From: a phage
Reading direction: 5' to 3' (one strand)
Sequence record: PZ386963.1
Length of the DNA: 64,000 nt
The notes below the pieces were generated by a model. It was given only the letters and a program-made list of their open reading frames with translations. It was not told the origin of the DNA and did not search any database. A program made the translations under genes and the position numbers. This document shows positions 56,667 through 63,655 of this stretch, in pieces (the stretch's first letter is position 1; the number at the start of each line of letters is the position of its first letter).

Positions 56667-58082
56667 ATGAGCGAATTATTTAAACATGCGCACCTTCATG
56701 CAGGTCGAACTGAAAATGGTGCTGTAAACCATACTTCATCAATGTCTGCTCTTGTAGACTTTTACAAAGCTGCTGGTTCAAGCCGTAGCAACGTAGAAAT
56801 CTTACCAGACCTGTTCTATAAAGCTTTGCGTGAGGATGTTGATGTTGCAGTTCGTATTTTACTGCATATGCGAGATGTACGAGAAGGTATGGGTGAGCGT
56901 AAAGCCTTCAGAACTGTTTTGCTTCAAGCAATTGAAGATAAAGTTTTAGAGCCTACACAGGTTCTTCGCATTATGGATAAGATTGCAGAACTTGGTCGTT
57001 TTGATGACTTCAAAATCTTCGCAGGTACTCGTTTCGAGACAGATGCCTTCAAACATTTAGAAGCAGCATTACTAGACCCTGCAACAGCAGGTTTGGCAGC
57101 CAAGTGGTTACCACGAGTCAAACCACGTCACAAACAGTTTGTAAAACGTTTCTGCAAGTTTGCCAACTTGAGTGAGAAAGAGTACCGCACACTGTTGTCT
57201 GCACTATCTGATACAGTTGAGCAAAAAATCTCTGCTAATGAGTTTGGTAAGATTGATTACAGTAAGATTCCTTCACTTGCTGCTGCACGTTACCAAAAGC
57301 TGTTTAACCGCAAAGATGGAGAACGCTACAAAGCTTACATCGAGTCTTTATCAAAGGGTGAGACTAAGATTAATGCTGGTGCTGTTTACCCATACGATGT
57401 GATTAAGTCTGTTAAGTATGGTAATGCAGATGTTGCTAATGAGCAATGGAAAGCACTACCAAACTGGATGGCAGAGGGTGAAAACATTCTATGTATGTCT
57501 GATGTTTCATGTTCAATGTCTTGGGTGAATTTTGGCTCCATTACTGCTCTGGATATTGGTGTATCACTTGCATTGTATGTAGCAGAACGCAATACAGGTT
57601 GCTTTAAAAATGAGTTGATGGTTTATTCAACAAACCCTCACTTCATCGAACTGAGTGGTGATTTACGAAATCGCCATCGTCAGGTGATGCGACACGTTGA
57701 ATATGGTTCAACTAACTTACAAGCAGCTTTTGACCGTATTCTTGAGACAGGTAAAAGAAACAACTTGACTCAGAAAGATATGCCAAGTAAGCTTATCATC
57801 TTCTCCGATATGGAGTTCAATCAGGTTGATGGAGCTAACGGTCGTACAAACTTTGAAGCAATTCAGAGTAAGTACAAAAAAGCTGGATATGAGATGCCAC
57901 AACTGGTATTCTGGTACTTAGCAAACCGTAATGGTACTTGCGAAGTATCTGTTAAGGATAACGGTGTAGCAATGGTATCTGGTTTCTCCCCAGCCACTTT
58001 AAAAGCTCTGCTTGGTGGTGAGAAGTTTGACCCAATCAGCGTAATGCTCAAAGCAGTAATGATTGACCGTTATATCTGGTAA
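56667..58082 (+). CDS. vWA-domain protein with N-terminal helical domain (TROVE/Ro60-like or DUF2828-like architecture)
   Basis: MIDAS-like DVSCSMS (DxSxS) with downstream conserved Thr/Asp positions; 471 aa; directly upstream of tRNA cluster. Confidence 0.5.
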   Translation: MSELFKHAHLHAGRTENGAVNHTSSMSALVDFYKAAGSSRSNVEILPDLFYKALREDVDVAVRILLHMRDVREGMGERKAFRTVLLQAIEDKVLEPTQVLRIMDKIAELGRFDDFKIFAGTRFETDAFKHLEAALLDPATAGLAAKWLPRVKPRHKQFVKRFCKFANLSEKEYRTLLSALSDTVEQKISANEFGKIDYSKIPSLAAARYQKLFNRKDGERYKAYIESLSKGETKINAGAVYPYDVIKSVKYGNADVANEQWKALPNWMAEGENILCMSDVSCSMSWVNFGSITALDIGVSLALYVAERNTGCFKNELMVYSTNPHFIELSGDLRNRHRQVMRHVEYGSTNLQAAFDRILETGKRNNLTQKDMPSKLIIFSDMEFNQVDGANGRTNFEAIQSKYKKAGYEMPQLVFWYLANRNGTCEVSVKDNGVAMVSGFSPATLKALLGGEKFDPISVMLKAVMIDRYIW

Positions 58083-58192: not shown

Positions 58193-58222
58193 TTGACAAC
58201 CACTAAAAAATAATGTTAAAGT
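58193..58222 (+). promoter_or_regulatory. Sigma70-like promoter ~27 nt upstream of first tRNA
   Basis: TTGACA-18-TAAAGT. Confidence 0.45.
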
Positions 58223-58248
58223 GGTTACATAGAGTTTGAAAAGTTTAT

Positions 58249-58325
58249 CTCTGTTTAGCTCAGCTTGGTAGAGCGTTCCGTTTGGGGCGGTAAGGCCGGA
58301 GGTTCAAGTCCTCCAACAGAGACCA
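58249..58325 (+). tRNA. tRNA-Pro (anticodon TGG), CCA encoded
   Basis: Cloverleaf by eye: acceptor CTCTGTT/AACAGAG, D-arm GCTC/GAGC, loop TTTGGGG, T-loop TTCAAGT. Confidence 0.7.
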
Positions 58326-58332
58326 AATTAAT

Positions 58333-58410
58333 GTTCCAGTAGACAAAATGGTAAAGTCACCACTCTTTCAAAGTGGATATCTGAGGGTTCAAATCCCTTC
58401 TGGAACGCCA
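58333..58410 (+). tRNA. tRNA-Glu (anticodon TTC), CCA encoded
   Basis: Acceptor GTTCCAG/CTGGAAC, anticodon stem CCACT/AGTGG, loop CTTTCAA. Confidence 0.65.
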
Positions 58411-58416
58411 GTTTTG

Positions 58417-58492
58417 ACAGAAGACCAATTACAGCAAACTTAATCTTATTCATCTGAAGGTAAATCGGACAAAGAAGAGATTTGGTCTGGTC
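58417..58492 (+). ncRNA. Conserved inter-tRNA hairpin element, copy 1 (candidate small RNA or processing signal)
   Basis: ACAGAAGACCAATTACAGCAA at 5' end pairs with TTGGTCTGG at 3' end. Confidence 0.35.
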
Positions 58493-58502
58493 ATTAAGAA
58501 TT

Positions 58503-58578
58503 GCGGGTATAGAGAAAGGGCGTCTCACATGTCTCATTAGCATGGTATCGGCAGGTTCGACTCCTGCACCCGCCTCCA
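58503..58578 (+). tRNA. tRNA-Met/Ile2 (anticodon CAT) with unpaired position 1-72
   Basis: D-stem GAGA/TCTC, anticodon stem CATGT/GCATG, loop CTCATTA, T-arm GCAGG/CCTGC. Confidence 0.55.
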
Positions 58579-58583
58579 AATTT

Positions 58584-58650
58584 ACAGAAGACCGTTTACA
58601 GCAATATTTATTAAATTTTTAGCGGAAAAATTGAAAGATACGGTCTGGTA
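58584..58650 (+). ncRNA. Conserved inter-tRNA hairpin element, copy 2
   Basis: ACAGAAGACCGTTTACAGCAA ... ACGGTCTGG. Confidence 0.35.
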
Positions 58651-58661
58651 ATACTAAACAT

Positions 58662-58738
58662 GGTTAGGAAGCACATAAGGTATGTGCGGTCGCCTGTTAA
58701 GCGAATGGCACAGGGTTCGAATCCCTGACTAACCGCCA
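58662..58738 (+). tRNA. tRNA-Asn (anticodon GTT)
   Basis: D-stem GCAC/GTGC, loop CTGTTAA, T-arm CAGGG/CCCTG, 3' end ACTAACC-G-CCA. Confidence 0.65.
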
Positions 58739-58807
58739 AATTTAGGAGAGAAGCGATTGCTCACCGATTTGTAAGGTGCAAGTCCTTAGCCTGAATAGAA
58801 ATTAAAT

Positions 58808-58895
58808 GTGTCGTTATCCCGTAGATGGTAGCGGTGGGGACTGTAAATCCCTTGTCATTGAGACTCGGTAGGTTCGACTCCTACACGGCACACCA
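58808..58895 (+). tRNA. tRNA-Tyr (anticodon GTA), long variable arm
   Basis: Acceptor GTGTCGT/ACGGCAC, loop CTGTAAA, 15-nt variable arm, T-loop TTCGACT. Confidence 0.65.
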
Positions 58896-58900
58896 ATAAA

Positions 58901-58978
58901 GGTTATGTAGTTTAATTTGGTTAAAATACTCCCCTGTCACGGGAGATGATGAGGGTTCAAATCCCTTCGTAACCGCCA
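58901..58978 (+). tRNA. tRNA-Asp (anticodon GTC)
   Basis: Acceptor GGTTATG/CGTAACC, anticodon stem CTCCC/GGGAG, loop CTGTCAC. Confidence 0.65.
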
Positions 58979-59038
58979 ATTTTGAGAGGGCTATTTAGCC
59001 CCTCCCTTAAAGAGTTCTTACGAGTATTCTTTAAAGGA

Positions 59039-59113
59039 GCAGAAGACCAAATACAGCAAGTTACTTAAAATTTCAAGCCAATTTAATTTTGAAAAATTTA
59101 AAACTTGGTCTGG
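59039..59113 (+). ncRNA. Conserved inter-tRNA hairpin element, copy 3
   Basis: CAGAAGACCAAATACAGCAA ... TTGGTCTGG. Confidence 0.35.
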
Positions 59114-59125
59114 CTCAACAAATTT

Positions 59126-59258
59126 ACAGAAGACCGTTTACAGCAAAACTTAAACAATCTATTTCTCGGTAAAGAAAAGGTGAAGGTTCGATTCCTTCAC
59201 TCGGCAGATGTCGAGTTGGTGTAATGGTAGCACTTAAGATGATAAACAACGTTCTGGT
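59126..59258 (+). ncRNA. Conserved element copy 4 containing tRNA-like T-arm and D-arm fragments
   Basis: ACAGAAGACCGTTTACAGCAA ... GAAGGTTCGATTCCTTC ... GTTGGTGTAATGGTAGCAC ... AACGTTCTGG. Confidence 0.3.
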
Positions 59259-59402
59259 AATTATCTTTGTAGATAAGTTATTAAGCTTACCTGTGAGTAT
59301 GCGACCACAAAGGGTGAAAGGGTAAATTCTAGATTTAAACCCAAAAAGGCACATCGCTACAGACCTTAAGCAAGTCTGGGTAGCTTATCTACAAAGATAA
59401 TT
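59257..59402 (+). ncRNA. Candidate structured RNA closed by a 17-bp long-range inverted repeat
   Basis: TTATCTTTGTAGATAAG (59261-59277) is the exact reverse complement of CTTATCTACAAAGATAA (59386-59402), enclosing ~108 nt. Confidence 0.35.
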
Positions 59403-59406
59403 TAAT

Positions 59407-59482
59407 GGAAGTGTAGCAGAATGGTGATGCGGCAGACTTTTAATCTGACAGGCGATGGGTTCGAATCCCTCCACTTCTACCA
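59407..59482 (+). tRNA. tRNA-Lys (anticodon TTT), weak T-stem
   Basis: Acceptor GGAAGTG/CACTTCT, loop CTTTTAA, T-loop TTCGAAT; two T-stem mismatches. Confidence 0.55.
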
Positions 59483-59486
59483 AAAT

Positions 59487-59563
59487 GGTTCAGTCGCAGA
59501 TAAGGTAATGCAAGGGTCTCATAAGCCCTATGAATGTGGGTTCGAATCCCATCTGAACCTCCA
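59487..59563 (+). tRNA. tRNA-Met/Ile2 (anticodon CAT)
   Basis: Acceptor GGTTCAG/CTGAACC, anticodon stem AGGGT/GCCCT, loop CTCATAA. Confidence 0.65.
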
Positions 59564-59565
59564 AT

Positions 59566-59640
59566 TGTGGGTTAGCATAAATGGTAATGCAAACGGCTGA
59601 TAACCGTTAGAAGAGGGTTCGATACCCTCACCTACAACCA
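59566..59640 (+). tRNA. tRNA-Ile (anticodon GAT)
   Basis: Acceptor TGTGGGT/ACCTACA, anticodon stem AACGG/CCGTT, loop CTGATAA. Confidence 0.6.
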
Positions 59641-59655
59641 ATTTCAATAAAGTTG

Positions 59656-59684
59656 TTGACATTGAAATGTGACTACTTTATAGT
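59656..59684 (+). promoter_or_regulatory. Sigma70-like promoter inside the tRNA cluster
   Basis: TTGACA-17-TATAGT; flanked by ATTTCAA/TTGAAAT inverted repeat. Confidence 0.5.
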
Positions 59685-59977
59685 AACTAAAATACTTCAT
59701 AATATGTATAATTCAAACACCAATACATGAGCGTTAGACGTAACACAATGTGGGGAAATTTGTTGTACATATTCTGAATAGTTTTCGTTGCGTAGCGTCT
59801 ATTTTGCAAATTTAAAATAAATGCAAACGACAATGTTTTTCTGGCAGTAGCTTGATAGGCTAAACACCAGTGAGGTCTTCCAATCCCTCATCAAAGAATT
59901 TGGCGTACTCGCCCACGGTATGATTAATAAGGTGGGCATCTTTAAGGGCTTTCTAAGAGAGTCTTTAAAGATAATTA

Positions 59978-60059
59978 CGGGGCGTATCTCAGCGGTCTTC
60001 TAAACCGCCGTTAACCGAGTAAGTGGAGTATGCGGGTTCGAGTCCTGCCGCCTCGACCA
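59978..60059 (+). tRNA. Atypical tRNA-like gene (possible Arg, anticodon TCT); D-arm not resolvable
   Basis: Acceptor CGGGGCG/CGCCTCG, stem-loop GCGGT-CTTCTAA-ACCGC, T-arm GCGGG/CCTGC, CCA encoded. Confidence 0.4.
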
Positions 60060-60202
60060 ATTTAGTTAGCAGATTACTTAGACGACCTAAGCGGGTCTTC
60101 CTGTAGGGAGGTGGTCTGTATCTCATGTTTTCCAGAACATGTAAATAATCTGAGAAGGGGCTTTACAGTGTTGAGATAATACGGTAAGCTTCGAATTATA
60201 GT

Positions 60203-60285
60203 ATGGGACGATGTTAAGACTCTAAGGCATGAGCAACGGCCTCCAAAACCGTTTCAAAGGGGTTCAACTCCTCCGTCCCATGCCA
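60203..60285 (+). tRNA. Atypical tRNA-like gene with Trp anticodon arm (CCA); ~7 extra nt between acceptor and D-arm
   Basis: Perfect acceptor ATGGGAC/GTCCCAT, D-arm CTC/GAG, loop CTCCAAA, T-loop TTCAACT. Confidence 0.45.
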
Positions 60286-60298
60286 AAGTCTTATTATG

Positions 60299-60388
60299 GG
60301 TAGGTAGCGGCTAATGGTAGCCAAACTGTCTTGAAAACAGTTGCCACTGTAGAGATACGGTGAGGGTTCGACTCCTTTACTTACCGCC
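60299..60388 (+). tRNA. tRNA-Ser (anticodon TGA), long variable arm
   Basis: Acceptor GGTAGGT/ACTTACC, anticodon stem ACTGT/ACAGT, loop CTTGAAA, 20-nt variable arm. Confidence 0.65.
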
Positions 60389-60543
60389 TAATAAGATTTT
60401 AAAGCCAAGCTTCATTCGGATGTTGCTTTGGTATCCCTCGTGTATTGTCGTACACACTGATAAAGCACCTAGTAGGTGTCACGGAGAAGAGATAATATCA
60501 AGCTCTCCAAAGGTTCTAGTCACCGGATTAAACAAGACTATGC

Positions 60544-60566
60544 AAAGACCTTTTTAGGTCTTTTTA
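60544..60566 (+). terminator. Rho-independent terminator-like hairpin within tRNA cluster
   Basis: AGACC-TTTTTA-GGTCT followed by TTTTT. Confidence 0.5.
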
Positions 60567-60644
60567 GAGGGCTTCTAAGGTTATTACAGCTTGTTGTGGA
60601 ACCTTGTTGCTTAGGTTCTTAGAAGTTCTCTAAAAAGATTTAAT

Positions 60645-60722
60645 GGGAGATTGATGGTAATTGGTAAACCTACCATCCTTAGAAGTTGGTGTTTGAGGGT
60701 TCGAATCCCTTGTCTCCTACCA
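60645..60722 (+). tRNA. Atypical tRNA (possibly Leu, anticodon TAG; short variable arm)
   Basis: Acceptor GGGAGAT/GTCTCCT with wobble ends, loop CTTAGAA, T-arm GAGGG/CCCTT; D-arm irregular. Confidence 0.45.
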
Positions 60723-60729
60723 AATTAAT

Positions 60730-60805
60730 GCAGGTGTAGCAAAATGGTTATGCGGCTGACTCTTAATCAGTAAGACGACGGGTTCAATTCCCTCCACCTG
60801 TACCA
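60730..60805 (+). tRNA. tRNA-Lys (anticodon CTT)
   Basis: Acceptor GCAGGTG/CACCTGT, D-stem GCA/TGC, anticodon stem GCTGA/TCAGT, loop CTCTTAA. Confidence 0.6.
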
Positions 60806-60811
60806 GACATT

Positions 60812-60887
60812 GGGGTCATAGTTTATATGGTTAAAATTCGAGTTTTGCAAACTTGGGAACTGAGTTCAATTCTCAGTGACTCCACCA
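60812..60887 (+). tRNA. tRNA-Ala (anticodon TGC)
   Basis: Acceptor GGGGTCA/TGACTCC with G3:U70 pair, loop TTTGCAA, T-arm CTGAG/CTCAG. Confidence 0.7.
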
Positions 60888-60893
60888 ATTAGT

Positions 60894-60968
60894 GCATCCA
60901 TAGTTTAAACGGGAAAATTACAGTCTTCCAAACTGAGGTTGAGGGTTCGATTCCCTCTGGATGCTCCA
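60894..60968 (+). tRNA. tRNA-Gly (anticodon TCC)
   Basis: Acceptor GCATCCA/TGGATGC, loop CTTCCAA, T-arm GAGGG/CCCTC. Confidence 0.65.
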
Positions 60969-60974
60969 AACAAT

Positions 60975-61051
60975 GCTGCTTTCGTATAATTGGCTATTAC
61001 ACATCCCTTGTAAGGATGGAGATGCGGGTTCAAGTCCTGTGAGCAGCACCA
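60975..61051 (+). tRNA. tRNA-Thr (anticodon TGT)
   Basis: Acceptor GCTGCTT/GAGCAGC, anticodon stem CATCC/GGATG, loop CTTGTAA. Confidence 0.65.
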
Positions 61052-61146
61052 ATTCAGAGGTCAAGTGAAAGACCGCTGGTGTCAACTGAAGACCGTAACA
61101 AATTCCACGGAGTTGAGTTAGCGGCACAACTTCAGACCTCTTTCAC
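61052..61146 (+). ncRNA. Inter-tRNA spacer with long-range inverted repeat (candidate structured RNA)
   Basis: AGAGGTC (61056-61062) pairs with GACCTCT (61134-61140). Confidence 0.3.
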
Positions 61147-61221
61147 ACTCGCTTAGTTTATATGGTAAAACATCACCCTTACAAGATGAAGAAAAAGGTT
61201 CAAGTCCTTTAGTGAGTACCA
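61147..61221 (+). tRNA. tRNA-Val (anticodon TAC)
   Basis: Acceptor ACTCGCT/AGTGAGT, D-stem GTTT/AAAC, loop CTTACAA, T-arm AAAGG/CCTTT. Confidence 0.6.
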
Positions 61222-61222
61222 T

Positions 61223-61300
61223 GTTCCAGTATCCCAATTGGCAGAGGATGCAAGCTCAAACCTTGTATTAGTGACGGTTCGAATCCGTCTTGGAACACCA
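61223..61300 (+). tRNA. tRNA with anticodon CAA (Leu) but short variable arm
   Basis: Acceptor GTTCCAG/TTGGAAC, anticodon stem GCAAG/CTTGT, loop CTCAAAC, T-arm GACGG/CCGTC. Confidence 0.5.
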
Positions 61301-61305
61301 ATTTT

Positions 61306-61381
61306 GCAGGATTAGTTCAAATGGATAGAGCAACAGTCTACGAAACTGTTAATAGGGGTTCGAATCCCTTATCCTGCGCCA
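61306..61381 (+). tRNA. tRNA-Arg (anticodon ACG)
   Basis: Acceptor GCAGGAT/ATCCTGC, D-arm GTTC/GAGC, anticodon stem ACAGT/ACTGT, loop CTACGAA. Confidence 0.7.
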
Positions 61382-61399
61382 GATAAGCAAGAGGAATTT

Positions 61400-61642
61400 A
61401 TGCAAACATTAACCGTCGTTGAACATGAAAATTCCAATAGTATTGAGTTTGTAAGGGTTCCCACTATAGATACCCACATTTTCTTAAAAGTCGGATGGGA
61501 ATGCGACCCAATAAAAGTAGAAAGATTTATTGGTCATTGCTTTGGTGGAAGACAACTTAAAAGTATCAATTTTGAGACAATGTTACCAGAAAGCTCAGAA
61601 ACAAATAATAATGCTTACCTCCTTACGAGGGTTAGACAATGA
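61400..61642 (+). CDS. Hypothetical protein embedded in tRNA cluster
   Basis: 80 aa behind AAGAGGA RBS. Confidence 0.45.
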   Translation: MQTLTVVEHENSNSIEFVRVPTIDTHIFLKVGWECDPIKVERFIGHCFGGRQLKSINFETMLPESSETNNNAYLLTRVRQ

Positions 61643-62196
61643 GATACTTAAAATATGCTTCATGGATTTTCTTAGCTTTACTAGACCCAATTGCAGCAAT
61701 CCTAGCAGTTATCTTAGCACCTTTCGTAGTTCCATTCTACAGTGAGAAGAAAGGGCATCTACCTTTTGGATTCAGATGGATGGAGACCTATGACAACCCA
61801 ATTGATGGTGATGAAGGTCACGTTAAAAGATGGGCTAAGGTTAGAAAGATTGGTAAGCTGGGTGTCTACATGCAGAGAGTCGGATGGCTCTGGAGAAACA
61901 AAGCTTATAACTTCTCTTACCATGTATTAGGAAGAGATGTAAAAGATGTTACTAAGTGGAAAGGTAATATCAACGTAAGTTCTGACCCTGAAGATAATCA
62001 GACAGGTTATCTCCTAATGTGGAACAACAATGCTTGGGGATTATTCGCTTTTATTCCGTCAATTAAAGTCTTTGGTAAACAGTTTTACTGGAGAATCTAT
62101 GTTGGATGGAAACTAAAAAGTGTTGTCCCAGAAGAAAGAGCATTCTCAAGGGAAAGAGTTATGTTGGCATTCTTTATTCATCCACTGAGAAAGTAA
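61639..62196 (+). CDS. Membrane-anchored hypothetical protein embedded in tRNA cluster
   Basis: 185 aa, hydrophobic N-terminal ~30 aa, Trp-rich; ATGA overlap with previous gene. Confidence 0.45.
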   Translation: MRYLKYASWIFLALLDPIAAILAVILAPFVVPFYSEKKGHLPFGFRWMETYDNPIDGDEGHVKRWAKVRKIGKLGVYMQRVGWLWRNKAYNFSYHVLGRDVKDVTKWKGNINVSSDPEDNQTGYLLMWNNNAWGLFAFIPSIKVFGKQFYWRIYVGWKLKSVVPEERAFSRERVMLAFFIHPLRK

Positions 62197-62204
62197 AGAT
62201 TTAA

Positions 62205-62280
62205 AGGGGATTAGTTTACAAGGTTAAAACCTCGGTCTTTGAAATCGAAGAAGTTGGTTCAATTCCAACATCCCCCGCCA
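62205..62280 (+). tRNA. tRNA-Gln (anticodon TTG), position 1-72 unpaired
   Basis: D-stem GTTT/AAAC, anticodon stem TCGGT/ATCGA, loop CTTTGAA, T-arm GTTGG/CCAAC. Confidence 0.6.
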
Positions 62281-62282
62281 AT

Positions 62283-62361
62283 GCTCCATTACTCCAATTG
62301 GCAGAGAGGCCAGACTTAAAATCTGTGTTATGTATCGGTTCGAATCCGATATGGAGTACCA
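62283..62361 (+). tRNA. tRNA with anticodon TAA (Leu), short variable arm
   Basis: Acceptor GCTCCAT/ATGGAGT, loop CTTAAAA, T-arm ATCGG/CCGAT. Confidence 0.5.
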
Positions 62362-62366
62362 AATTT

Positions 62367-62442
62367 AGCGGTATAGCATAACTGGCAATGCAGCAGTCTC
62401 TGAAGCTGTCCTATTAAGGTTCAAATCCTTATGCCGCTGCCA
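62367..62442 (+). tRNA. tRNA-Gln (anticodon CTG)
   Basis: Acceptor AGCGGTA/TGCCGCT, D-arm GCAT/ATGC, loop CTCTGAA, T-arm TAAGG/CCTTA. Confidence 0.6.
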
Positions 62443-62473
62443 CTTCTAAGGGTTCTTACGAGAGTCCTTAAAT

Positions 62474-62549
62474 GTGGCCTTATCATAAATGGTAATGACC
62501 CATGCTGTGAACATGGTCTATACGGGTTCAAATCCCGTAGGTCACCCCA
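62474..62549 (+). tRNA. tRNA-His (anticodon GTG), discriminator C
   Basis: Acceptor GTGGCCT/AGGTCAC, D-arm TCAT/ATGA, anticodon stem CCATG/CATGG, loop CTGTGAA. Confidence 0.7.
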
Positions 62550-62554
62550 ATTTA

Positions 62555-62631
62555 TAGTCCAAGTAGCTTATATGGTTAAAGCGCGTGTCTGAAAAACATG
62601 AGAAGAGGGTTCAAATCCCACTGGACTACCA
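62555..62631 (+). tRNA. tRNA-Phe (anticodon GAA), irregular acceptor-to-D-arm spacing
   Basis: Acceptor TAGTCCA/TGGACTA, D-stem GCTT/AAGC, loop CTGAAAA, T-loop TTCAAAT. Confidence 0.55.
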
Positions 62632-62647
62632 ATTTCAAAGGTGCTTA

Positions 62648-63382
62648 ATGAAAGAGATGACAGAACAAGGTAAGGAGATTTTTAATCTCTTAAAAACCGG
62701 TAAAGGGTTTTCTAACCCACTTATTACTGGTGCAGCAGTTCTCGGTGGAACCGTAGCTGCCTCTACATCACTTGTAAGCTCTATTAGCTCTGTAACAGAC
62801 CCTACAATGAAGGAGAAGCTTGTTGCTGCTGGACTTACAACAGTCCTTCTAAACAGCTTTACAACAAGCCTGACAAGCACTACAGCAACTACTAAGACCC
62901 TAACAGACTATGGTCAAAAGTCTATTGATGAGTTTTCATCACGTATGCAGGTAGCAAAGGGGTACTCCAATGTTATGGGTGCAGCAGGAGAACAAGTTGG
63001 TTGTACACCATTCAGTGGTATTATGGGTGTTGCTACAGAGTACGGTCAGCAAGCTATTGGCATGATTAACAGCACACTAGACAGTGTTAACGGTGTGTTA
63101 AGTGATTTACAAGACGCTATTGATGAGGGTCTTGATACTGTTTCTGATTTAGCTAATCAGGCTGTTAGTAAGATTAATGAAGGTATCTCAAAGATTACAG
63201 CTTATGCAGATGAAGTTGTGCAGATGATTGAAGAAGAAGCTGCCCTTATTGCAGAGTACCTTAAAACGAATATCAATGGGTTCTTAGCAGGTATCTTACC
63301 AGACTGGTTTGATGATGCTTGTAAAACTGGTGTAATTGACACCATTGCAACACCAGAAATGAAGAGCGCATTACAGAAATAA
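62648..63382 (+). CDS. Ser/Thr-rich hypothetical protein embedded in tRNA cluster
   Basis: ATG at 62648 just after tRNA-Phe; 244 aa with low-complexity S/T segment. Confidence 0.45.
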   Translation: MKEMTEQGKEIFNLLKTGKGFSNPLITGAAVLGGTVAASTSLVSSISSVTDPTMKEKLVAAGLTTVLLNSFTTSLTSTTATTKTLTDYGQKSIDEFSSRMQVAKGYSNVMGAAGEQVGCTPFSGIMGVATEYGQQAIGMINSTLDSVNGVLSDLQDAIDEGLDTVSDLANQAVSKINEGISKITAYADEVVQMIEEEAALIAEYLKTNINGFLAGILPDWFDDACKTGVIDTIATPEMKSALQK

Positions 63383-63383
63383 T

Positions 63384-63476
63384 GGAAGATTAACCCTAAA
63401 AGGTAAGGGAGCAGTTTGCTAAACTGCCAGTAGCTGAGAAATCGGTGTACCAGTTCAAGTCTGGTATCTTCCTCCA
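63384..63476 (+). tRNA. tRNA-Ser (anticodon GCT), long variable arm
   Basis: Acceptor GGAAGAT/ATCTTCC, anticodon stem GCAGT/ACTGC, loop TTGCTAA, T-arm ACCAG/CTGGT. Confidence 0.65.
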
Positions 63477-63480
63477 ATCT

Positions 63481-63556
63481 GAATCCGTGACAGAAATGGA
63501 TATGTGCCTGTCTGCAAAACAGGTTTATAAGGGTTCGAGTCCCTTCGGATTCTCCA
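63481..63556 (+). tRNA. tRNA-Cys (anticodon GCA)
   Basis: Acceptor GAATCCG/CGGATTC, anticodon stem CCTGT/ACAGG, loop CTGCAAA, T-arm AAGGG/CCCTT. Confidence 0.65.
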
Positions 63557-63594
63557 AGTTATTTTACTCTCTCTCAATTAAAATAATAATAATG

Positions 63595-63655
63595 CCCTGC
63601 TATAAGTATTCTTCCTTTCGCTACCGAAGAGTATTTTTAGACAGGGCTTTTTTAC
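63595..63655 (+). terminator. Terminator-like compound hairpin ending the tRNA cluster
   Basis: GCCCTG ... CAGGGC followed by TTTTTT. Confidence 0.4.

Follow-up and report, generated by a model that had tools for sequence, protein, structure and literature searches.

Non-canonical tRNA genes of a Felix O1-like phage: a probable rewired tRNA-Arg(UCU) and a Trp-type companion

The tRNA cluster of a Felix O1-like phage (taxon Felixounavirus), analyzed here in a window of 64,000 nucleotides (the whole stretch of DNA examined; sequence record PZ386963.1), comprises 25 tRNA genes called by ARAGORN and two irregular genes, with TCT and CCA anticodons, which together account for the 27 candidates counted in an earlier sequence-only reading. 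The interpretation favored here, to which a probability of roughly 70% is given, is that the two irregular genes are functional, evolutionarily kept, non-canonical tRNAs and that their addition to the 25 ordinary ones gives the phage decoders for every one of the 20 amino acids. The departures from the cloverleaf described in that reading, which had warned that some of its hand folds might be wrong, were all found in the sequence, and two of them, the D arm of the TCT gene and the T stem of the lysine genes, had to be refolded.

The TCT gene (59978-60059, on the plus strand as are all features below; 82 nt including an encoded CCA) was delineated with a covariance model of its own, which scores it at 98.5 bits and canonical tRNAs at no more than 34, with the Rfam tRNA model and with 41 close relatives. 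Its 7-bp acceptor, which includes a G3-U70 pair, joins CGGGGCG (59978-59984) to CGCCUCG (60049-60055), and is followed by the discriminator A at 60056 and the CCA end at 60057-60059. The anticodon arm (59992-60008) consists of a 5-bp stem, GCGGU/ACCGC, and the loop CUUCUAA, with the anticodon UCU at 59999-60001, while the T arm (60032-60048) has a 5-bp stem, GCGGG/CCUGC, and the loop UUCGAGU; the perfect acceptor, T arm and TCT stem-loop noticed by eye are thus confirmed. Only 7 nt separate the acceptor from the anticodon stem, and 23 nt separate the latter from the T stem. The statement that no D arm is identifiable holds for the D hairpin, which is absent; covariation reveals a substitute for the D stem, a helix in which the 5' linker meets bases lying 3' of the anticodon arm, accompanied by a D-loop-like bulge. 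Within the linker UAUCUC (59985-59990), CUC (59988-59990) pairs with GAG (60017-60019), the 3' strand of the substitute stem, and a further pairing of UAU (59985-59987) with GUA (60028-60030) is proposed; this UAU/GUA segment is invariant in the gene's own subtype, and the equivalent helix covaries in an 80-82-nt subtype. The region 60017-60031 runs from GAG through the bulge UAAGUGGA and GUA to a U that leads into the T stem. The 8-nt connector CGUUAACC (60009-60016) lies between the anticodon stem and GAG as a bulge or internal loop; its CGUUAA was fixed by the retrieval patterns, so that the relatives give no independent evidence of its conservation. The connector reads CAUCAA in one relative retrieved without this constraint, the two positions that follow are variable, and the connectors of other subtypes differ and are shorter.

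With the partner strands of the linker lying 3' of the anticodon arm and UAAGUGGA as a bulge between them, the acceptor, an extended anticodon helix and the T arm are predicted to meet in a three-way junction, and not in a four-way cloverleaf. In such a fold the chain UAUCUC would leave the 7-bp acceptor and descend directly into the anticodon stem, meeting GAG and probably GUA. The bulge, in which we propose equivalents of A14, A15, G18, G19 and A20 (an assignment of our own), would provide a GG for docking on the T loop as well as the A recognized by ArgRS at position 20, and an L shape would still be possible.

Comparative data support the pairing. In 41 distinct relatives of 79 nt, base pairing holds in 94.9% of cells (64.4% in shuffles), both-side changes occur in 18 of 21 pairs, and all four helices are compensated. 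All seven acceptor pairs show such changes (99.3% of cells paired), as do five of five pairs of the anticodon stem, whose loop is almost invariant, and three pairs of the T arm (99% paired). The retrieval pattern left the substitute-helix positions free, and the two variable pairs of that helix accumulate 11 and 6 double changes with no broken cell: alignment columns 12-41 hold UA 30, AU 8 and GC 3, and columns 13-40 hold CG 35, GC 3 and UA 3. Unrelated phages, namely Klebsiella phages Roth37 and KB57, jumbo phage BF17 and phi92, harbor copies 83-90% identical to the TCT gene within their own tRNA clusters. A wider class of 128 distinct sequences carries the D-loop-like motif immediately 5' of the T arm, with anticodons UCU (83), ACG (31), UCG (6), CCU (5) and CCG (1); 126 are therefore arginine anticodons and two are not. 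Over this class, 339 of 378 substitute-helix cells are paired (shuffle mean 227, maximum 249), and the sequence types with full complementarity number at least 12. In more than 120 sequences in which a 7-bp acceptor and an anticodon arm are likewise present, the motif UAA-N-UGGA, itself fixed by the retrieval patterns, directly precedes the T arm. As the class was gathered with patterns that fix conserved motifs, these frequencies are not population estimates, and part of the conservation seen in those motifs comes from the patterns themselves. ARAGORN detects three of the 128 members, and the Rfam tRNA threshold is reached by five of 20. A scan of the genomes of 185,579 bacterial and archaeal species returned the 79-nt subtype in four short MAG contigs only. 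By its sequence, the TCT gene appears to belong to a large, phage-only class of rewired arginine tRNAs that standard tRNA finders overlook, and no prior description of this class was found. Some relatives need not be decoders, as suggested by a related 72-nt element in T5-like phages whose anticodon loop is not recognizable.

The second irregular gene (60203-60285) is a non-canonical tRNA of the tryptophan type, with the anticodon CCA at 60243-60245. Its acceptor (60203-60209 with 60275-60281), which contains A1-U72, is followed by the linker GAUGUUAAGA (60210-60219), of 10 nt where 2 nt are normal; the extra nucleotides before the D stem, put at about seven in the earlier reading, amount to 8. 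A 3-bp D stem, CUC/GAG (60220-60222 with 60231-60233), precedes a 5-bp anticodon stem (60235-60239 with 60249-60253) and a 9-nt anticodon loop, CCUCCAAAA (60240-60248); G73 lies at 60282 and the CCA end at 60283-60285. The gene is best described as a Trp-type tRNA with 8 nt inserted ahead of the D stem and with position 31-39 unpaired. It is conserved in Felixounavirus, Mooglevirus, Suspvirus and Pectobacterium phage Wc4-1, with compensatory changes in the acceptor (AU/GC), the D stem (CUC/GAG versus CAC/GUG) and the anticodon stem (AACGG/CCGUU versus GUAAG/CUUAC versus GUAGG/CCUAC). [quoted passage not shown] The phage gene shares with a known tRNA of this kind the CCA anticodon, the unpaired 31-39 and an effective 9-nt loop, but has an additional 26-44 pair, which brings the stacked pairs back to five, and differs in its 8-nt acceptor-D insertion, 3-bp D stem and 4-bp T stem.

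The irregular genes could be viewed as decaying, functionless remnants of canonical tRNA genes hit by deletions and insertions, as the sequence-only reading had considered. ARAGORN called no tRNA at either locus (with default settings for the CCA gene), and the Rfam scores are marginal or sub-threshold: at a cut-off of 29, the TCT gene obtains 31.7 bits from the tRNA model, in an alignment that deletes the D arm, and the CCA gene is below threshold for every Rfam family. The single-sequence fold energy of the TCT gene is close to that of shuffled sequences (z = 0.04), its minimum-energy structure having a small local hairpin in place of the long-range helix, and HNH endonuclease genes inserted in the FelixO1 cluster and adjoining the Roth37 copy indicate that such clusters do rearrange. 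Against this, every helix is kept by compensatory changes in the 41 and the 128 relatives, in unrelated phages. The stems of both genes keep pairing in this way, the Trp-type gene across four Ounavirinae lineages, and the pattern is therefore not one of chance. Conservation of the loop CUUCUAA and of the D-loop-like motif, the confinement of anticodons to arginine, and the fact that the two genes supply exactly the decoders absent from the canonical set point the same way. The covariation data thus already disfavor decay, which has very little chance of being the correct explanation, and the irregular genes are conserved and probably working tRNAs.

The role of the TCT gene as a decoder is suggested by its genomic position. 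In the Felixounavirus Bas63, a canonical tRNA-Arg(UCU) occupies exactly the same slot between near-identical flanks, and canonical versions are also found in Sf17, Henu11 and PC79-13, three phages from other Ounavirinae lineages. Over 153 loci, a canonical arginine tRNA of the same anticodon accompanies a rewired one in only eight of 161 cases, and complementary pairs recur: rewired UCU stands beside canonical ACG in 21 instances, and rewired ACG beside canonical UCU in 13. In the ORFs of the window, AGA represents 26% and AGG 7% of arginine codons, jointly 33%. The Felix O1 genome paper had expected a tRNA for AGA and found none (PMC3185647); FelixO1 carries the TCT gene. The main determinants of E. 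coli ArgRS are A20 and C35, and those of TrpRS are G73, A1-U72 and the anticodon (PMC9976931); the bases corresponding to ArgRS, LeuRS and TrpRS determinants are present in the Arg, Leu and Trp-type genes, respectively. We infer from these features the expression, charging identity, decoding and three-dimensional fold of the irregular genes: the TCT gene would be transcribed with the whole cluster, matured, charged by host ArgRS and used to read AGA and AGG, codons that the phage uses often and for which the host tRNA is rare.

Altered identity may apply to the TCT gene alone, through its acceptor, in which G2-C71, G3-U70, G4-C69 and A73 are alanine-like, so that AlaRS might charge the window's allele. 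The corresponding proposal is that alanine charging, partial or complete, makes AGA ambiguous, or else that the Trp-type tRNA, whose loop is enlarged, reads UGA or promotes frameshifts. G3-U70 is kept in the copies of Felixounavirus, Roth37, BF17 and KB57, among which the neighboring pairs 1-72 and 2-71 vary, and tRNA-Trp(CCA) variants with weakened anticodon stems do read UGA (PMC13092985). However, the 3-70 pair is G-U in only six of the 41 close relatives and G-C in phi92, and is therefore not class-defining; insertion of alanine at 26% of arginine codons would be harmful proteome-wide, and efficient reading of UGA would be costly, TGA ending 10 of 40 long ORFs. Such a change of identity is considered improbable.

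An arginine decoder must also be weighed against a function in counter-defense, in which the rewired arginine RNAs, and perhaps the Trp-type RNA, would serve mainly as decoys for host nucleases or toxins directed at tRNA, or as replacements that resist cleavage by them, the RNA core having been altered to evade recognition. Phage tRNAs are known to counter tRNA-cleaving defenses, T5 tRNA-Lys, -Thr and -Asn neutralizing the AriB component of PARIS (PMC12409363). The near absence of the 79-nt subtype from the one genome collection scanned, the occurrence of the class in unrelated phage lineages, and the alternation of canonical and rewired alleles within one genus, as expected under fluctuating selection, count in favor of this scenario. 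To our knowledge, no defense recognizes the D arm of tRNA-Arg. Moreover, the anticodon loop CUUCUAA, the usual nuclease target, is the same as that of the host-type tRNA, and one core bearing five different arginine anticodons appears tied to arginine identity and not to a single nuclease target; a resistant replacement must, in addition, still decode, and would overlap with the decoder role. Sequence data neither support nor exclude a decoy or nuclease target, and counter-defense as the main function is judged unlikely, though it deserves some weight.

Comparison with known systems places the TCT gene closest in its parts to canonical tRNA-Arg(UCU), such as E. coli argU and the Bas63 and Sf17 alleles, with which it shares the 7-bp acceptor, the 5-bp anticodon stem, the loop CUUCUAA, a T arm with a UUCGA loop, A or G at 73 and an encoded CCA, as well as, for the phage alleles, the slot and the presumed codons. 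It differs in lacking the D hairpin, in the partner strand of its linker lying 3' of the anticodon arm, in a D-loop-like sequence that is a bulge running into the T stem, in its predicted three-way junction, and in being missed by standard finders. The D-armless tRNA-Ser species of metazoan mitochondria are short, organellar molecules with a small replacement loop that need adapted mitochondrial factors. Like the TCT gene, this tRNA-Ser(GCU/UCU) group lacks the D hairpin, and some of its members have a UCU anticodon (PMC4013460, PMC7609411); the phage RNA, in contrast, measures 79 nt before CCA, has a covarying substitute helix and, in our reading, D-loop equivalents in its GG and A, and has to rely on the standard machinery of bacteria. 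Class II tRNAs (Leu, Ser, Tyr) and allo-tRNAs (8/4 or 9/3 acceptor/T), unusual forms also reported from phages (PMC5389517), share the long anticodon-T stretch, but in the TCT gene this stretch has no hairpin of its own and its variable positions change in concert with the 5' linker, while its acceptor/T configuration is the ordinary 7/5.

The remaining oddities concern ordinary members of the cluster. The genes for tRNA-Leu(UAG) (60645-60722, 78 nt; Rfam 40.2 bits), tRNA-Leu(CAA) (61223-61300, 78 nt, with the Leu-type D-loop CAAUUGGCAGA) and tRNA-Leu(UAA) (62283-62361, 79 nt), lengths including CCA, were identified by ARAGORN and Rfam, and all carry A73. They do lack the long variable arm, with variable loops of 4-7 nt, while Ser and Tyr genes keep theirs; the cluster of Wc4-1 contains an 87-nt, long-arm tRNA-Leu(UAA). 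Short-arm leucine tRNAs are common among the phage loci sampled, with 65 distinct sequences in 49 loci. E. coli LeuRS does not need the long arm, its determinants being A73, A15-U48 and G18G19 (PMC9976931). Since the window's genes retain A73, A15-U48 and the G18G19 D-loop, the missing arm does not in itself imply altered identity, and they may be seen as leucine tRNAs that have lost an arm dispensable to the enterobacterial enzyme. The only tRNA-Leu group listed without a long arm in the 2023 identity review is that of animal mitochondria (PMC9976931), which has the same short variable loop and A73; the phage genes differ in keeping a bacterial Leu-type D arm (3-bp stem, loop CAAUUGGCAGA) and A15-U48, and are presumably used with bacterial LeuRS.

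Irregular spacing had also been noted in tRNA-Leu(UAG) and tRNA-Phe(GAA), and is present in both, which, in the automated folding suggested earlier as a check, pass Rfam and are among the 25 ARAGORN calls. The former has a weak D stem of 2-3 bp, and its anticodon stem covaries with FelixO1 and Wc4-1. For tRNA-Lys(UUU) (59407-59482) and tRNA-Lys(CUU) (60730-60805), which are 81% identical to each other, a five-base reading of the T stem does give three pairs and two mismatches, but a better fit is a 5-bp stem of G49-C65, A50-U64, one bulged pyrimidine and three G-C pairs, the bulged base alternating between U and C among relatives. In the Phe gene (62556-62631; ARAGORN fold, Rfam 45 bits), 3 nt separate the acceptor from the D stem, A7 and C66 are mismatched and the T stem is irregular, an irregularity conserved in Felixounavirus, Mooglevirus and Suspvirus relatives, while the Phe gene of Wc4-1 is regular.

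Over its 5.4 kb, the region 58200-63600 shares 94-99% identity with Felix O1-like myophages from Salmonella and Escherichia (Felixounavirus, Ounavirinae), and its tRNA cluster is common to the window and to the annotated Felix O1-like relatives. ARAGORN detects 25 tRNA genes in this cluster, all on the plus strand and spanning 58249-63556, and the Rfam tRNA model detects 24. The 27 candidates of the sequence-only reading correspond to these 25 ARAGORN genes plus two elements, one at 59978-60059 (+) with a UCU anticodon (the TCT gene) and one at 60203-60285 (+) of Trp type (the CCA gene), and all of the irregularities described by that reading were seen again at the sequence level. Once both elements are included, every one of the 20 amino acids is represented in the cluster; the Sf14 paper counts 19 for a related phage. 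It is of note that the first tRNA-Met(CAU), at 58502-58578 (+), falls under the Rfam tRNA threshold yet is called by ARAGORN, and that its 1-72 pair is mismatched, its acceptor-D spacer measures 3 nt and position 37 is a U.

The TCT gene carries three of the four elements of a cloverleaf in canonical form. Its acceptor stem consists of 7 bp (CGGGGCG/CGCCUCG), whose pairs covary, followed by A73 and an encoded CCA; the anticodon arm has a 5-bp stem (GCGGU/ACCGC), all five pairs of which covary, and a 7-nt loop (CUUCUAA) with U33 and a purine at position 37; and the T arm (stem GCGGG/CCUGC) closes a UUCGAGU loop that conforms to UUCRANY. The gap between the acceptor and anticodon stems is of 7 nt, and positions 10-25 form no D hairpin. 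The gene is not called by ARAGORN, and Infernal aligns it by deleting the D arm and inserting 20 nt in the variable region, and it passes the Rfam tRNA model by 2.7 bits (31.7 bits, cut-off 29). The earlier statement that a D arm is missing therefore holds for a local hairpin of 3-4 bp and fails for the helix itself, since covariation reveals a partner strand 3' of the anticodon arm: within the post-acceptor linker UAUCUC, the triplet CUC (59988-59990) pairs with GAG (60017-60019), which would generate a three-way junction.

Evidence for this helix comes from relatives. BLAST reveals, besides those of Felixounaviruses, copies of the TCT gene with 83-90% identity in the tRNA clusters of unrelated phages, namely Klebsiella phages Roth37 and KB57, the 383-kb jumbo phage BF17 and phi92, where they are mostly unannotated or labeled "tRNA-OTHER". 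Among five such copies, compensatory changes are present in the acceptor, anticodon and T stems, and the linker and the 23-nt "variable" region are constant. Two pattern scans of IMG/VR, the second of which left the linker and the six positions ahead of the UAA free, yielded 41 distinct 79-nt relatives. At these unfixed sites, the triplet of the linker changes in concert with the one preceding UAA (CUC/GAG, CAC/GUG, CAG/CUG, CAU/AUG, CGC/GCG and CUU/AAG). Across the 41 aligned sequences, the new helix has two variable pairs, which are UA, AU and GC in 30, 8 and 3 sequences and CG, GC and UA in 35, 3 and 3, with no unpaired cell, and the structure as a whole is paired in 94.9% of cells, compared with 64.4% after shuffling and no more than 46% after sliding of the partners. 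This evidence is comparative and not thermodynamic, since RNAalifold run alone, as well as the single-sequence fold of the TCT gene, recover only the three classical stems and miss the new helix. The sequence-only reading had proposed that such genes could be pseudo-tRNAs; covariation of the stems in relatives speaks directly against decayed genes, and we regard this explanation of the unusual genes as very improbable.

A covariance model built on the rewired structure assigns 98.5 bits to the TCT gene and no more than 34 bits to canonical tRNAs, and it also recovered two intermediate relatives, one of them with anticodon ACG. A wider IMG/VR search for the D-loop-like motif directly ahead of a T arm delineated a class of at least 128 distinct sequences of 74-92 nt, each with a 7-bp acceptor stem and an anticodon arm. 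Among the 128 sequences listed, the linker/pre-UAA helix keeps its pairing in 339 of 378 cells (shuffle mean 227, maximum 249) and occurs as at least 12 fully complementary sequence types. Furthermore, an 80-82-nt subtype shows covariation between bases 1-4 of the linker and the four bases that follow UGGA (UAGC/GCUG, UAAC/GUUG, UAGU/ACUG and UAAU/AUUG), so that the linker makes up a single uninterrupted helix and the strand opposite is broken by the D-loop-like bulge; the corresponding UAU/GUA of the window's subtype is able to pair and is invariant. As the start of the linker in the 80-82-nt subtype pairs just 3' of UGGA, a first model of the core, in which the tertiary pairs U8-A14 and A15-U48 were the sole contacts above CUC/GAG, was revised.

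Class members largely escape the standard finders: ARAGORN detects three of the 128 sequences listed, and the Rfam tRNA threshold is reached at five of 20 class loci examined, with 29-37 bits as compared to 40-73 for the adjoining canonical tRNAs. A scan for the window's 79-nt subtype in one genome per species, covering 185,579 bacterial and archaeal species, returned four matches, all of them on MAG contigs of 5.5-41 kb. A BLAST search of GenBank phages with a sequence of the 80-nt subtype gave no match, and Xanthomonas jumbo phage XacN1 carries an unannotated rewired Arg(ACG).

The anticodons of the 128 sequences listed are UCU (83), ACG (31), UCG (6), CCU (5), CCG (1), GAU (1) and GUC (1), so that 126 belong to arginine. 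The two exceptions, one with GAU (Ile) on IMG/VR contig L125 and another with GUC (Asp), may represent anticodon shifts out of the arginine family. This near restriction of the class to arginine, together with the tRNA-Arg(UCU) anticodon loop of the gene itself, is the first of several reasons for which we read the TCT gene as a working tRNA-Arg, which would be expressed and charged in the infected cell. A second reason is provided by its identity elements, since the determinants of E. coli ArgRS are C35, U36 or G36, A/G73 and A20 in the D-loop (PMC9976931), and the gene carries C35, U36 and A73, position 73 being usually A or G throughout the class; the A that follows the GG of the D-loop-like bulge would be the equivalent of A20. 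Thirdly, Felixounavirus Bas63 harbors a canonical tRNA-Arg(UCU) in the same slot, with near-identical flanks and a swap that is exact at the gene borders, and the canonical gene also occupies this slot in Sf17, Henu11 and PC79-13. In addition, over 153 loci, a canonical Arg tRNA shares the anticodon of the rewired one in just 8 of 161 cases, and complementary combinations, in which rewired UCU accompanies canonical ACG or vice versa, are common. Codon usage points in the same direction, AGA and AGG representing 26% and 7% of arginine codons in 40 long ORFs of the window, as does the fact that FelixO1, in whose genome paper an AGA tRNA was expected and none found (PMC3185647), carries the TCT gene. 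Finally, the best sigma-70-like site of the region (TTGACA-17-TATAGT, 59656-59684) lies upstream of the gene on the same strand, with no overall enrichment of such sites in the region. A UCUUUAAAGA-type hairpin is located just upstream of the gene, at 59940-59978.

Other roles can be envisaged for this RNA. Charging with alanine is possible for the window's allele, whose acceptor includes G2-C71, G3-U70, G4-C69 and A73, but the G-U at 3-70 occurs in just six of 41 close relatives. A counter-defence role, which the sequence-only reading had raised in the form of targets or decoys for host anticodon nucleases, is likewise possible and would be compatible with decoding, but no particular nuclease is indicated by the sequence. 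A further proposal, which we consider unlikely, is that the rewired core is an adaptation that spread among unrelated phages by escaping or titrating a host factor acting on ordinary tRNA-Arg (a nuclease, a toxin or a modification-dependent check), and that alleles with G3-U70 and A73 would also take alanine, leading to a conditional or ambiguous reading of AGA.

The tRNA-Arg reading was also compared with known systems, and the TCT gene fails one defining feature of each: canonical tRNA-Arg, mitochondrial D-armless tRNA-Ser, class II tRNAs, allo-tRNAs and tmRNA. A tmRNA, which combines a G3-U70 acceptor stem with a tag reading frame and pseudoknots and lacks an anticodon arm, or a tRNA-like domain was considered due to weak Rfam tmRNA matches and G3-U70; the match is of 22 bits and confined to the acceptor and T parts, ARAGORN finds no tmRNA, and the covarying anticodon arm, the absence of a tag and the lack of conservation of G3-U70 in the class ruled it out. 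A class II variable-arm hairpin (CCG/UGG), which would be self-contained between positions 44 and 48 and is suggested by the minimum-energy fold, was rejected in that its 5' positions vary without keeping pairing and covary instead with the 5' linker. Metazoan mitochondrial D-armless tRNAs are organellar by definition, are truncated and carry a short replacement loop that lacks GG, whereas the TCT gene is of phage origin, has 79 nt plus CCA, and contains both a GG-bearing bulge and a substitute helix. Rfam 15 includes no family for the rewired Arg RNA, and no description of it was found in open-access papers or bioRxiv. A review from 2020 on non-canonical tRNAs leaves phages out, and the phage tRNA in the allo-tRNA paper is of a different kind (PMC5389517). 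Should rewired Arg tRNAs be aminoacylated and take part in translation, a natural three-way-junction tRNA would be accepted by the ordinary bacterial machinery, from RNase P and ArgRS to EF-Tu and the ribosome, with consequences for the minimal tRNA core and for the design of orthogonal tRNAs. The canonical and rewired alleles that occupy one slot in sibling phages offer a natural experimental pair. Phage genome annotation would also be affected, since invisibility to the finders makes phages appear to lack an AGA decoder or a tRNA-Trp; gaps of this sort are reported for Felix O1 (PMC3185647) and in the Sf14 paper.

Two further observations concern the surroundings and kin of the class. A 72-nt "tRNA-OTHER" of the T5-like Escherichia phage KookSpook (670-741 of fetched locus L210), present in approximately 90 records of T5-like Salmonella and Escherichia phages, has the D-loop-like motif directly ahead of the T arm and shares 97% identity with a rewired Arg over 33 nt; it displays neither a recognisable 7-nt anticodon loop nor an encoded CCA, which makes it a possible non-decoding relative. 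Several insertions of HNH endonuclease genes occur in these tRNA clusters (FelixO1, locus L002; Roth37, locus L003; and BLAST relatives), one of them directly downstream of the rewired tRNA in Roth37, and homing may contribute to the transfer of tRNA cassettes from one phage to another.

The CCA gene (60203-60285) is the sole Trp-type gene of the cluster. Neither ARAGORN nor the Rfam model reaches its threshold here, and relaxing the former yields an uninterpretable "tRNA-???". The long spacer and the Trp (CCA) anticodon arm noted initially were both recovered, and the linker measures 10 nt (an 8-nt insertion ahead of the D stem); a 9-nt loop and a 4-bp T stem also depart from the standard cloverleaf. 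BLAST found it with 84-100% identity in 231 of 236 matching phage records, chiefly of Felixounavirus, Mooglevirus and Suspvirus, with a 76% identical copy in Pectobacterium phage Wc4-1, no relatives outside Ounavirinae, and no tRNA annotation among the records listed. Relatives exchange AU and UA for GC and CG at acceptor pairs 1-72 and 2-71, and CUC/GAG for CAC/GUG in the D stem; four of five anticodon-stem pairs covary, and position 31-39 is always C-A or C-C, which opens the 9-nt loop. The gene has the CCA anticodon, A1-U72 and G73 that are listed as determinants for bacterial TrpRS (PMC9976931). Trp tRNAs with unpinned loop ends exist in bacteria but are unstudied (PMC13092985). The linker GAUGUUAAGA (60210-60219) and the connector CGUUAACC of the TCT gene (60009-60016) have GUUAA in common, located two bases ahead of the strand that precedes the UAA..GG D-loop; GUUAA is absent from other rewired subtypes.

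The three Leu genes, Leu(UAG) at 60645-60722, Leu(CAA) at 61223-61300 and Leu(UAA) at 62283-62361, indeed lack a long variable arm, with total lengths of 78-79 nt and variable loops of 4-7 nt; the Tyr (88 nt) and Ser (90 and 93 nt) genes of the cluster retain theirs. All three have A73 and bacterial Leu-type D arms, with D-loop CAAUUGGCAGA in Leu(CAA) and Leu(UAA) and UAAUUGGUAAA in Leu(UAG). Recognition by E. coli LeuRS relies on A73, A15-U48 and G18G19 with A20a in an enlarged D-loop, both the long arm and the anticodon being dispensable (PMC9976931), and judging from their sequences all three genes would qualify. The cluster of Pectobacterium phage Wc4-1 pairs a long-arm Leu(UAA) of 87 nt with a short Leu(UAG), which suggests that loss of the arm took place inside the subfamily. 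Phages clearly often carry short-arm Leu: in a biased sample of approximately 200 fetched loci, ARAGORN detects 65 distinct short Leu tRNAs in 49 loci versus long ones in 45, Ser and Tyr genes being nearly all long. These short Leu tRNAs measure 73-81 nt and come from unrelated phage contigs (e.g., loci L112, L122, L131 and L132). In a 2023 review of identity elements, animal mitochondria are the only listed source of tRNA-Leu lacking the long arm (PMC9976931).

Among the remaining irregular genes, Leu(UAG) was found to have a weak D stem, and Phe (62556-62631) a 3-nt spacer and an irregular T stem. The T stems of the two Lys genes (59407-59482 and 60730-60805) are irregular as well, although the two mismatches originally proposed are better described as a five-pair stem in which a single pyrimidine bulges out after position 50, this base being alternately U or C among relatives. 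A 26-nt inverted repeat with 85% complementarity (60554-60643) lies just upstream of tRNA-Leu(UAG) and, like the UCUUUAAAGA-type hairpin, may be a processing or termination structure.

A conserved structured RNA is located between tRNA-Asp and tRNA-Lys, at 59160-59402 (+). It comprises, in order, a T arm, a closed 7-bp 'acceptor' hairpin, which shows compensatory changes in Sf17, a D arm and a 22-bp inverted repeat around approximately 100 nt. It is a circularly permuted tRNA-like module with the same topology as YrlA-type bacterial Y RNAs, and it has no match among Rfam families. Immediately upstream of the cluster, 56667-58082 (+) encodes a 471-residue PHROG 850 'RNA-binding protein' with Pfam domains DUF2828 and DUF7788; regarding a likeness to Ro60, this protein has no PDB sequence match, and its single-sequence AlphaFold model (pLDDT 43) was too poor for use. 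Lastly, CAGAAGACCnnnTACAGCAA occurs four times on the plus strand in the first part of the cluster (58418, 58585, 59040 and 59127), three of the copies starting at most 10 nt past a tRNA 3' end.
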